Shown piece after piece: positions 12,001-15,000 of a DNA stretch of 54,025 nucleotides (its first letter is position 1; each line of letters begins with the position of its first letter). Position numbers: made by a program. Where the stretch lies: IMG/VR virus record IMGVR_UViG_2526164690_000030. One strand, 5' to 3'. Source of the DNA: a virus. Taxonomy: Duplodnaviria > Heunggongvirae > Uroviricota > Caudoviricetes.

Positions 12001-15000
12001 ATGTTTTTTATGTAAAAGGATGATAATCGTGGCTACTAAAATTAAACTTGAAAACCCTCAAACTGGCGAATCAATCACCGGTTTTTATGGTTTTTCCTGG
12101 ACTACATTCTTGTTTGGTGCTTTTCCAGCTTTGTTCAGGAAAGACTTTATAACTTTTATTGGGGTATTCGTAGTGATGCTGATACTGGCATTCCTCACAG
12201 CCGGAATTGGCCCGTGGATTGCCTCATTTATCTGGGCGTTCATGTATAATAAATATTTCACCGTAAATAAGATAAAACAAGGCTTCATTTTTGCTGGTTC
12301 TCACACAGAAAATGAGTTGGCTGCTAGCAAGCTAGGATTGTCATTAAATCAAAACAACTGCAAAACTATTACCGAGTAAAGCCAAAAAGCAGGCTTAATA
12401 GTAAGCCTGCTATATCAATCACGAATCTCTCTGACAATTCAGAAACATAAACGCCCGCTTGTCTGTTAAATCCGTAACATAATACTCTCTCATGCCTGTA
12501 GGTTTTATTCTACGAGCATATACAAACTTATGAACTGGTTGTTTTTCCCCATAACTTACATCAGTCCTAAATTCATCAACCACGCTACCATCTTTTTCGA
12601 CTTCCTTTCTCACCAGCTTATTTTCTAATGCTGGCTTTGATTCGTCCATGCCACTAAAAGCATCCTGGCCTGTACTATTGCCTCGATTTCCGCGCGGCAA
12701 ATCCCATGAGAAATAAGTGCCATAGTCAGTAATCACACGATCCCAGACTCCAGTATCCCCCATATAGTTAGAGCGCTTTCCATTGTAGGTTACAGCCACT
12801 TTACAGGAGTACGTTTCTTCATTCCCTCCAGCCTTACTCGCTGTGGTTGCAGGGATATTTTGGATAGATGCGCTTACGTCATCTTGCGTTAACTCCTCAA
12901 CTGGAGCAAATTCATATATGGGGGTGCCGAGGCTATTTAAATATAACTTATATCTAACCCTAAGCGCACTTCCATCTGAGAATTCATACGTTCCCAGGCA
13001 TTGGAGCTTATTTTTTTCTCTTATCTCATTGATCTGATTATAAGCATCGATTACAGAAATTGCTTCCTGATCGTCCTTCAGCAGTTCATTATAATCATCG
13101 ATTAACATCTGCCTAGTTTTAGGGGAATTGCAGTCAATTTTGCTAAAATCATAAGCAAAGGTGAGTGTGGGGACAAAAAGAGCAACAACAGTAGCTAGTA
13201 TTGTTGAGGAAAATCTTTTTCCATTTTTTATAAAAAACATTTCATTAACTCCATACCTTACCATCTTAGCCGCGAGCGCGGTCCCTAAAACCCTTAACTT
13301 CACTGCACCGTCCTTCATGCAATCAAAATGACTTTTATGTTATAAAAATAATCAGCCAAATCAACATGATTTAGGCCAAATTTCTGTCAAAAATAAAATC
13401 CACAAAAAGTGGTTGACACTATTTTGGAAATCACAAACTGCACATAATCCATCGCGCTAACGGCTCCCGTTGAAGGTTCTTTTGACGATTAACTTTCAGC
13501 CGAAGCGCGGTAGGGAGTCATAACGCCAAAGCAGGCCGCCATGTGCGGCCTTTTTTTGTATCCGTCATCCGTGGAGGAAGGACAATGGAAAAGATCGCAA
13601 TATTCAGCCTGACCACCAGCAAGCCTCAAATGCTCACTGCAATACTGAAAGACGGTGCTCTCATTATTAACGAAGTAAAACCCCTTCCCGCGTCAGCATT
13701 GGAGCAAAAGCAAAAAATTCCTCCAGCTATAGCAGCCCTGCGGAAAAGCAAATTTAAGGTACTGGTAGACGAAATTACGCCAACGATCTCCGCTGGCACC
13801 GGAGCAAGCCAGGTGACTCTCAAGACCCGTCATGCCGATGGTAGAGCAGCAATCATCGTCGGGATGGAAAGATACAAAGAGTTAAAACTCCAGAAACTAT
13901 TATCCCTGCCGCAAAATAACAAAGGTGCTTTCGAAATCCCCGACTCTATCGTTGATACCGAATACAACGGTAACGGAGAAGAAGTCTACAGGGTGAACTG
14001 GCAGGATATCAGGCCGGAGCATATTCTGATGATCCTGTGTTGCTACGCGACCGTATACCACAACGTTGCCAGTGCGGATTACGTAGAGCAGATGACCGGT
14101 ACAGTCGAGAAAGAGCAAAAAACAGGCATACTCGCTTCGTTCCTTTCCATTATTGGGCATGAAAAAGTTAAAGCAGGCACCTCCCAGCCAAAGTCACTGG
14201 CTGGGAAAGAAGTTGATGAAGATACCGTGATACTTTGATCACATTAGTAGCTTTGTTAACTCCCTCAACACCAGGTAGAAGAGTAACAAAAATATTGACG
14301 CGAGTATTTGAGTGGTCAATGAAGCGTTCATAAACAGATCAATTAGAATTAATAATTCGAAGATAACATCCATGTCATTCACTCCGTTTAATTTTTAATC
14401 TAATGCCAGCAAATGAAGCTGGCCCCCGCATAAAGATTAATGAAAGTCACTTGTCACCAGTGAGGGGATTTATGAGCCACATCCCCCTGAACTGGTGGCC
14501 TGTCTGTTTCTCGCATTTCACACCCTGCATACAGTTTCCCCCAGGTTATGACTGAGAGGCTTTGTTATGGGCTATAGCAGACTCGACGATAGGTACATTG
14601 AAGACGATATTTTTCGTGCGCTGTTTCACCAGGAAATGATTAAGCGGGTATCGGAGTATCACTCTGATAATTTCCAGTACACGATAAAGATTGATGAAGT
14701 ATATCGTTCAGACCTTGCAGCCTACCGGGCGTATGGCAATGCAGATTTGCGCTGGGTATTCCGGGTGCTGGTGGGCCATGAGTCAGAAATGGAAGAAATG
14801 CCCGCCGGGACCACGTTAACTCTTCCTGATGTGGCATGGCTGAGGAACAAGATCCGTGATTACGCGAGCGCGGAACCGGAGATAGAAAATGCCTGATTTC
14901 CTGAAAAACCAGGACGGGCGCTATATCACTGACGGCCTGTCCTCTAAGGACTTCACGCGTTTATTCGAGCTTATCAGGAAAGAACAAACCCGTAAGCGCC

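Follow-up and report, generated by a model that had tools for sequence, protein, structure and literature searches.

The 54,025-nt stretch of DNA analyzed here (the window; IMG/VR record IMGVR_UViG_2526164690_000030, Caudoviricetes) derives from a P1-like phage-plasmid of the D6 lineage, and all coordinates are window positions unless stated otherwise. This work concerns a slot bounded by an immI-type operon (c4-icd-ant-pmgF-like) on the left and, on the right, by the conserved gene mat, which encodes the maturation control protein (13585-14238, plus strand). The slot holds two convergent genes, for a small membrane protein and for an exported protein. The exported protein was found to join a domain homologous to SimB of the P1 superimmunity (sim) operon to a rare beta-barrel, and it is tentatively interpreted below as a periplasmic superinfection exclusion factor of the Sim type.

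An earlier note on this DNA, made from the sequence alone, had described the two genes as an AT-rich pair of accessory genes (morons). Both convergent open reading frames (ORFs) that it reported are present, and their longest forms occupy 12020-12379 on the plus strand (119 aa) and 12419-13318 on the minus strand (299 aa). Neither longest form is the likely gene. For the small gene, all 20 of the aligned homologs start with 'MA', which matches a GTG codon at 12029; this codon is preceded by AGGA 8 nt upstream and is also the start called by the NCBI Prokaryotic Genome Annotation Pipeline (PGAP). The alternative ATG at 12020 is disfavoured because its AAGG directly adjoins it and is therefore too close, so the gene most probably spans 12029-12379 and encodes 116 aa. 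The exported-protein gene (phrog_13054; PHROG match 6.6e-191) most probably starts at ATG 13240 and spans 12419-13240 on the minus strand. A GGAG sequence lies 8 nt upstream of this codon, and the homologs likewise begin at this position. Both ORFs are more than chance ORFs, since they show purifying selection or strong conservation, as described below.

A hairpin with a 10-bp stem and a 4-nt loop separates the two genes (12388-12411). It is followed by a T-run on the minus strand, while the plus strand lacks a good one. The hairpin resembles an intrinsic terminator and is a candidate for that role at the end of the exported-protein gene.

The GC content of the focal 1.3 kb is 0.40, compared to 0.461 ± 0.033 for the phage backbone. 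The sharp drop claimed earlier is thus real but modest: 6% of same-size segments have a GC content this low or lower, and other parts of the window lie below it, e.g. 0.30-0.35 near 17.5 kb. The GC content at third codon positions (GC3) is 0.36-0.41 in the two genes, against 0.51-0.56 in icd, ant, mat, gp26 and gp25. The low GC and GC3 values, together with the absence of both genes from P1, agree with their description as accessory cargo, and the variable gene content between conserved flanks that is typical of morons was also found (see below). An AT-rich stretch at 17.4-18.8 kb, which adjoins an insertion sequence transposase gene and contains the HigB/HigA toxin-antitoxin genes (18460-19177), has a lower GC content (0.30-0.38) than the focal region.

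Architecture and distribution of the exported protein

The likely product of the minus-strand gene has 273 aa, close to the ~270 aa given in the earlier note, and contains exactly four cysteines (C37, C81, C146 and C269), as had been claimed. Its first 29 residues (13154-13240, minus strand) form a Sec signal peptide, MFFIKNGKRFSSTILATVVALFVPTLTFA|YDF, recognized by sequence inspection: it has a basic n-region, an 18-residue hydrophobic core and a small residue at position -1, with cleavage predicted at TFA|YD. Comparable leaders are present in P1 SimB and in all homologs. The mature protein would be located in the periplasm.

Three segments follow the signal peptide, all encoded on the minus strand. 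Residues 30-116 (12893-13153) constitute the SimB-like domain, which is modelled as one helix on a 4-stranded antiparallel sheet (predicted local distance difference test, pLDDT, 83-88) and carries the conserved Cys37 and Cys81. The linker that comes next (residues 117-140; 12821-12892) is of low complexity and disordered (pLDDT below 50), and it is the most divergent segment of the gene (83% nucleotide identity to D6). The C-terminal 133 aa (residues 141-273; 12422-12820) form an eight-stranded beta-barrel with the signature motifs YFSWDLPRGNRGNSTGQD and HKFVYARRIKP.G.REYYVTD. In the full-length structure model the N-domain was the only confident part, and a deeper alignment gave the C-domain as a confident all-beta module (pLDDT 86, predicted template modelling score 0.83). 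Cys146 and Cys269 are invariant in 13 of 13 aligned barrel sequences, and this pair would fit a disulfide clamping the ends of the barrel.

Residues 31-116 (86 aa) are 52% identical to mature P1 SimB over its entire length (BLASTP E = 6e-27), with both cysteines kept. The exported protein also matched P1 in tblastn (E = 9e-18), and the PHROG cross-matches between the SimB family (phrog_14329) and the N-domain of phrog_13054 were reciprocal. This likeness was known beforehand: the D6 GenBank record labels the gene 'putative superimmunity accessory function protein, similar to simB', and the same has been stated for plasmid pYU39_89 in a paper that also notes that simA and simC are missing (PMC6799933). 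The earlier note had missed both the SimB homology and the two-domain architecture. The present result is a modest refinement. What it adds is the two-domain layout of the protein, a barrel that is both rare and modular, a remnant leader in a slot that behaves as a cassette site, and the recognition of the membrane gene as unrelated cargo.

Homologs of SimA and SimC were found neither in the window nor in the complete D6 genome, and SimC is confined to P1 proper. The possibility that the barrel is a diverged SimC was ruled out (best BLASTP E = 0.88; hhalign probability 0.07%). Searches of Pfam, NCBIfam and PADLOC with both slot proteins and the barrel relatives returned nothing above threshold, in line with the earlier remark that no catalytic motif can be recognized; a Lactamase_B_2 match was set aside at 17.8 bits (cutoff 27). 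Foldseek gave no match to the Protein Data Bank at E ≤ 0.001, matches in the viral structure library were to uncharacterised proteins only, and no sequence relatives were found among solved structures. The fold of the barrel resembles lipid- or ligand-binding barrels such as BT_2261, nitrobindin, YceI and the lipocalins.

A word-indexed search of 5.8 billion proteins identified 11 homolog clusters of the exported protein. Their alignment revealed two unrelated N-terminal domains, each attached to a strongly conserved C-terminal domain of ~133 aa. From 1.84 billion representatives, an exhaustive profile search then retrieved only 31 proteins, in two groups. One consists of stand-alone SimB-like proteins (91-121 aa), the other of barrel proteins, some of which (145-170 aa) have just a signal peptide in front of the barrel, while the rest are fused to other N-terminal regions. 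The barrel thus stands by itself or follows one of at least four unrelated N-terminal contexts, a modularity that fits an adaptor-plus-effector design. Its alternative N-domains are unrelated to SimA, SimC or the neighbouring genes. A conserved partner encoded upstream of the barrel genes was ruled out, as the 181-aa protein in contig L008 and the 202-aa protein in contig L007 are unrelated. One stand-alone barrel protein (P0013) is encoded in L008, a phage-like 42-kb contig, within a co-oriented run of genes for small lipoprotein, exported and membrane proteins (L008 positions 4100-7052), a setting that suggests envelope-directed gene clusters in other elements.

Gene replacement between ant and mat

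The focal region and its flanks match ~92-kb non-mobilizable plasmids of E. coli and Salmonella at 100% identity; identity to Escherichia phage D6, a P1-like plasmid prophage, is 96.8%. The gene order annotated in D6 (ref, icd, anti-repressor, pmgF-like, orf80, orf79, mat, gp26, gp25) is the same as the PGAP layout on the identical plasmid pMFDS1011659 (CP092511.1). Side by side and convergent, both genes were found in 50-60 D6-like plasmids. Among 5,426 complete E. coli genomes the two genes were present in 38, on a plasmid every time and never on the chromosome.

Comparison with close D6-like relatives showed that the two genes are replaced or missing in some of them, as expected for the accessory status claimed earlier, and none of the homologs identified proved to be a conserved structural core gene. 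In one 90.5-kb D6-like contig (L004) the flanks are ~99% identical to those of the window; this contig lacks the SimB domain as well as the pmgF-like and small genes, and encodes a barrel protein with a different N-domain directly between ant and mat. In other D6-like plasmids (L021 type), genes for two other secreted proteins (207 aa and 130 aa) take this position with unchanged orientation. In L007, a distant relative of 88 kb, the gene for a 202-aa secreted protein and a downstream SimB-barrel gene share one operon. These variants (207 aa + 130 aa, 202 aa + SimB-barrel, and alternative N-domain-barrel) all encode exported proteins. A remote homology of the 130-aa secreted protein to the barrel was considered and is unsupported (hhalign probability 0.8%). 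In L007, a 109-aa protein (L007 positions 5857-6186) follows icd where a full Ant would be expected, and it resembles the C-terminal ~50 residues of the window Ant (RASWPE...ATDW).

In some D6-like plasmids, such as CP058021.1 (L022 positions 441-2433), the slot additionally carries a three-gene insertion, encoding proteins of 101 aa and 357 aa and a dCTP-deaminase-like protein (Pfam DCD, 1.2e-30). As PADLOC recognizes none of the three genes, the insertion may be an uncatalogued cassette of the nucleotide-depletion type. For the same reason the slot was rejected as a hotspot of known defence systems.

The region preceding ATG 13240 retains a trace of such a replacement. The 26 in-frame codons upstream of this start (13241-13318) are the remnant of a replaced gene: positions 13261-13318 (minus strand) correspond to the 5' end (~17-19 codons) of the 207-aa gene (phrog_12786), in frame with the SimB-barrel ORF. 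In DNA alignments the homology shared by the window, D6 and the 207-aa-type plasmids runs from the upstream region through the ~17 initial codons of the 207-aa gene and ends at ~13261-13267, just before the ribosome-binding site of the SimB-barrel gene. Twelve E. coli plasmids match just this remnant (query positions 1242-1299). The in-frame leader explains why the ORF has been called as a protein of 294-299 aa (D6 orf79, cluster P0001). The alignment also shows that the slot variants consist, in every case, of exported proteins placed behind one upstream region.

The intergenic region shared with the divergent mat (13241-13584) is the presumed promoter region of the exported-protein gene, which is probably expressed from there. 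Its mat-proximal 172 nt are 99.4% identical in L004. Sigma-70 promoter candidates are weak, e.g. TTGATT-16-TAACAT at 13364-13337 on the minus strand. On the plus strand, a GC-rich hairpin with a T7 run behind it (13533-13551) precedes the mat start codon by only ~35 nt and resembles a terminator or attenuator within the mat leader; it is conserved in D6, L004 and L021 and diverged in L007.

Relative to D6, the flanking genes are 98-99.7% identical, compared to 93.5% for the barrel segment and 83% for the linker. The ratio of nonsynonymous to synonymous substitution rates (dN/dS) is 0.03-0.29 across the exported-protein gene, in both domains, and the local synonymous rate (dS) is elevated. The low dN/dS and raised local dS between such similar flanks point to recombinational exchange of functional alleles; diversifying selection was ruled out, dN/dS being well below 1.

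The window as a whole is a recombinant mosaic, as revealed by comparing the sit gene (43447-45849) with the slot (11500-13700). The sit allele is 100% identical to that of pYU39_89 (NZ_CP011430.1), which has a D6-type slot (93% protein identity), and the slot is 100% identical to that of pMFDS1011659, whose sit is 98.1% identical. More generally, plasmids with an identical slot carry a sit gene that is 98.1% or 91.7% identical to that of the window, and plasmids with a D6-type slot one that is 100%, 91.5% or 87.7% identical.

Possible functions of the exported protein

In P1, simA, simB and simC form one operon next to immI and divergent from c4, encode three products with signal peptides, and are non-essential, being dispensable for lytic growth. 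As summarized in two later papers, P1 sim confers superinfection exclusion and may stop the injection of DNA into the cytoplasm (PMC9177967 and PMC8546580, citing Kliem & Dreiseikelmann 1989; Devlin et al. 1982 is also cited there for this exclusion). The simABC genes make up one of eight hypervariable regions in P1-like phage-plasmids (PMC9603915).

The slot carries two independent accessory genes. By analogy with the P1 system, we propose that the exported protein acts in Sim-type periplasmic superinfection exclusion, a reading to which we give a probability of about 0.45. The protein would then be the D6-lineage counterpart of the P1 sim operon. Working in the periplasm of the lysogen or the infected cell, it would keep a related superinfecting phage from delivering its DNA to the cytoplasm. 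In this model the SimB domain is a docking or adaptor module and the barrel a swappable binding or effector module, standing in for the separate SimC of P1. Such a division of labour is suggested by the fusion and by the occurrence of the barrel on other N-domains. The SimB-barrel fusion also gives a hint of the Rosetta-stone type that P1 SimB cooperates with the partner encoded downstream of it. The homology of the N-domain to a protein of the superimmunity operon fits the guess of the earlier note that the locus may encode an exclusion function.

Several observations weigh against Sim-type exclusion. The exclusion factor demonstrated in P1 is SimC, to which the barrel has no similarity, and the function of SimB itself is rated 'putative accessory'. 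Stand-alone SimB-like proteins are encoded in ordinary chromosomal contexts, e.g. between dpp genes and a LysR regulator, and the SimB-like domain is therefore not diagnostic of phage exclusion. The fold of the barrel is generic. PADLOC-DB v2 contained no match for either slot protein, P1 SimB, SimC or the barrel relatives. The promoter candidates in the upstream region (8-of-12 matches) are not above chance, and no P1-type C1 operators were found in the window. Finally, a crude cross-tabulation revealed no covariation of slot and Sit alleles.

A broader form of the exclusion reading appears doubtful at present. The barrel proteins may represent a modular class of periplasmic phage-entry blockers, in which a cysteine-clamped barrel effector is combined with swappable N-domains (SimB-like, helical type 2, membrane-anchored, or none) that would dock it to different targets in the envelope or the phage, the slot being a dedicated site for the exchange of secreted exclusion cassettes. 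If this were true, the SimB-effector fusion would show SimB to be the adaptor of SimC in P1 and would provide a handle on the Sim mechanism.

A different and rather unlikely explanation is that the exported protein serves lysogenic conversion in a way that has nothing to do with phages. Its barrel, calycin-like in form, would act in the envelope by binding a small ligand, a lipid or a host factor and so affect stress tolerance, colonisation or virulence, with the SimB-like domain as a common periplasmic scaffold. The resemblance of the barrel to BT_2261, nitrobindin, YceI and the lipocalins is consistent with such a role, as are the SimB-like domains at non-phage chromosomal loci and the position of the stand-alone barrel P0013 among lipoprotein and envelope genes. 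However, sequence relatives of the barrel are very rare and nearly all lie in phage or phage-plasmid contexts, the gene adjoins the immunity region as P1 sim does, and neither Pfam nor NCBIfam revealed a signature of a virulence family.

It is likewise improbable that the barrel inhibits a peptidoglycan hydrolase in the manner of PliC, MliC, PhiA or ACP and thereby protects the cell wall of the lysogen, the target being the SLT domain of an incoming Sit protein, an external lysozyme or an amidase of the type VI secretion system. With Sit as the target, this would be a sub-mechanism of superinfection exclusion. The protein is exported and has a cysteine pair that could clamp the barrel ends, the phage itself encodes an SLT-domain Sit homolog, and D6-like variants diverge both near simB and in sit (PMC6799933). 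Against this, no match to Pfam MliC/PliC or any other family was obtained, and the alleles of the slot and of sit assort independently. P1 Sit has 1140 aa; its homolog in the window appears to be split into ORFs of 428 aa and 800 aa (42068-45849), with P1 Sit residues 188-309 corresponding to the first ORF and residues 400-523, which contain the SLT domain, to the second.

The small membrane gene, the surrounding element and known systems

The small protein was assigned to phrog_4915 (PHROG match 2.7e-47), a family with at least 183 homolog clusters. Its hydrophobicity profile comprises a strong transmembrane segment at residues ~41-63 with a weaker hydrophobic segment on either side. For this reason it probably has two to three membrane helices: the earlier description of a 119-aa protein with two transmembrane segments is right about the membrane location, and both the length (likely 116 aa) and the helix number need revision. 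The second and third hydrophobic segments are probably separated by a loop, because one homolog has a 35-residue insertion at the GIG turn. Across 21 diverse members of the family 21 positions are invariant, and two motifs, GFYGFSWTT..FG..PALFR.D and WAF.YNKYYT, are near-invariant. A few family members carry the UniRef label DUF2628 (PF10947). The Pfam model does not support this assignment: only 4 of the 21 members match, with a best E value of 0.21, and the window protein has no match at E ≤ 1.

Homologs of the small protein are encoded on chromosome-sized contigs of Pantoea, Cedecea, Enterobacter, Duganella, Variovorax and others, and also in jumbo phages of the Rak2/121Q type (54-58% identity) and in Lactobacillus phages. 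The family has no conserved neighbourhood; every case examined differs, and none includes a SimB-like or barrel gene. As the family is widespread and never found beside a SimB-like gene elsewhere, the two genes of the slot do not appear to be a functional pair. Judged from its sequence relatives, the small gene is autonomous accessory cargo, repeatedly acquired by phages and mechanistically unlinked to the exported-protein gene. Our best guess, held with low confidence, is that it has a host-modifying or exclusion function at the membrane.

The pairing implied by the earlier note, in which the periplasmic protein would have the small inner-membrane one as its anchor or partner in exclusion or defence, is consequently very unlikely. 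The genes are convergent neighbours of similarly low GC content in 50-60 D6-like plasmids, and membrane-plus-periplasm exclusion pairs have precedents, such as T4 Imm and Sp. However, convergent transcription precludes an operon, and the distribution of the two families largely refutes the idea: the small family stands alone in many chromosomes, virulent phages, jumbo phages and Lactobacillus phages, without a SimB or barrel neighbour; L004-type plasmids have a barrel protein but lack the small gene; and plasmids with barrel proteins only ~93% identical to that of the window encode an unchanged small protein (100% identity). That one or both ORFs are decaying, functionless remnants is highly improbable in spite of the recombination scars, the remnant leader at 13261-13318 and the replacement of the genes in relatives, given a dN/dS of 0.03-0.29 over both domains, intact ORFs with good ribosome-binding sites in dozens of plasmids, and small-family motifs that are near-invariant across Proteobacteria.

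To the left of the slot, all on the plus strand, lie the C4 antisense RNA (10256-10343; Rfam, 77 bits), icd (10398-10613), ant/Rha (10613-11539; Pfam Phage_pRha) and the pmgF-like gene (11599-11883), the three genes being annotated in D6 and by PGAP. Since the Rfam C4 match is directly upstream of icd, this flank (10256-11883) is an intact immI-type operon; the small membrane gene comes next in the same orientation. A second, weaker C4-like match (9705-9784; 40 bits, gathering score 45) is located ~470 nt upstream of the true C4 RNA. Between the two C4 matches lies a match to isrK, an Hfq-binding small RNA (10134-10212; 62.7 bits, above the gathering score). On the other side of mat, an insertion sequence transposase of 402 aa (DDE_Tnp_1; 16281-17489, minus strand) occupies the position of D6 orf73.

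The first 8900 nt of the window form a GC-rich block (55-66% GC), inserted just to the left of ref (9008-9586), that consists of a class 1 integron and a Tn3-family transposon. It contains genes for a sul1-type dihydropteroate synthase (1282-2208, minus strand) and aadA (2626-3636, minus strand), the integrase gene intI1 (3566-4579, plus strand) and a Tn3-family transposase gene (5872-8838, plus strand). With its sul1-type and aadA genes and class 1 integron, this D6-like phage-plasmid carries resistance genes, and D6-like phage-plasmids are common carriers of such genes in E. coli and Salmonella. Exclusion genes of these elements would influence which phage-plasmids co-infect a cell or displace each other. 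P1-type exclusion may operate at the DNA-entry step, and a natural SimB fusion would offer a way into its mechanism.

Among known systems, the periplasmic lysozyme inhibitors PliC, MliC, PhiA and ACP and the calycin-like binders are 3-14% identical to the barrel, a likeness at the level of fold only. An eight-stranded barrel is common to both, but the MliC/PliC family signature was not detected, Pfam giving no match. The closest known counterparts of the small protein are members of phrog_4915, including HrgC (gp492) of the jumbo phage 121Q, with 54-58% full-length identity and shared conserved motifs.

For the exported protein the nearest known counterpart is P1 SimB. Both proteins have signal peptides, both are encoded beside the immI region (c4-icd-ant) of a P1-type phage-plasmid, and both genes are dispensable, variable accessory genes. 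Homology and export (the latter by inspection) place the N-domain in the SimB family, but the stand-alone architecture of ~105-120 aa is not preserved: P1 SimB is a separate protein of 111 aa, translationally coupled to simC, whereas here a linker and a 133-aa barrel are fused to the domain. The organization of the sim operon also differs. The window has no simA-simB-simC order and no SimC, and its gene adjoins the 3' end of immI and diverges from mat, whereas P1 sim is divergent from c4. Neither sequence nor profile comparison detected similarity of P1 SimC (Sim; phrog_14355) to any segment of the window protein. The two are nevertheless alike in being exported, presumably periplasmic proteins of similar total size (264 aa for SimC) that belong to the operon family of SimB, and SimC is the presumed functional analogue of the barrel module.

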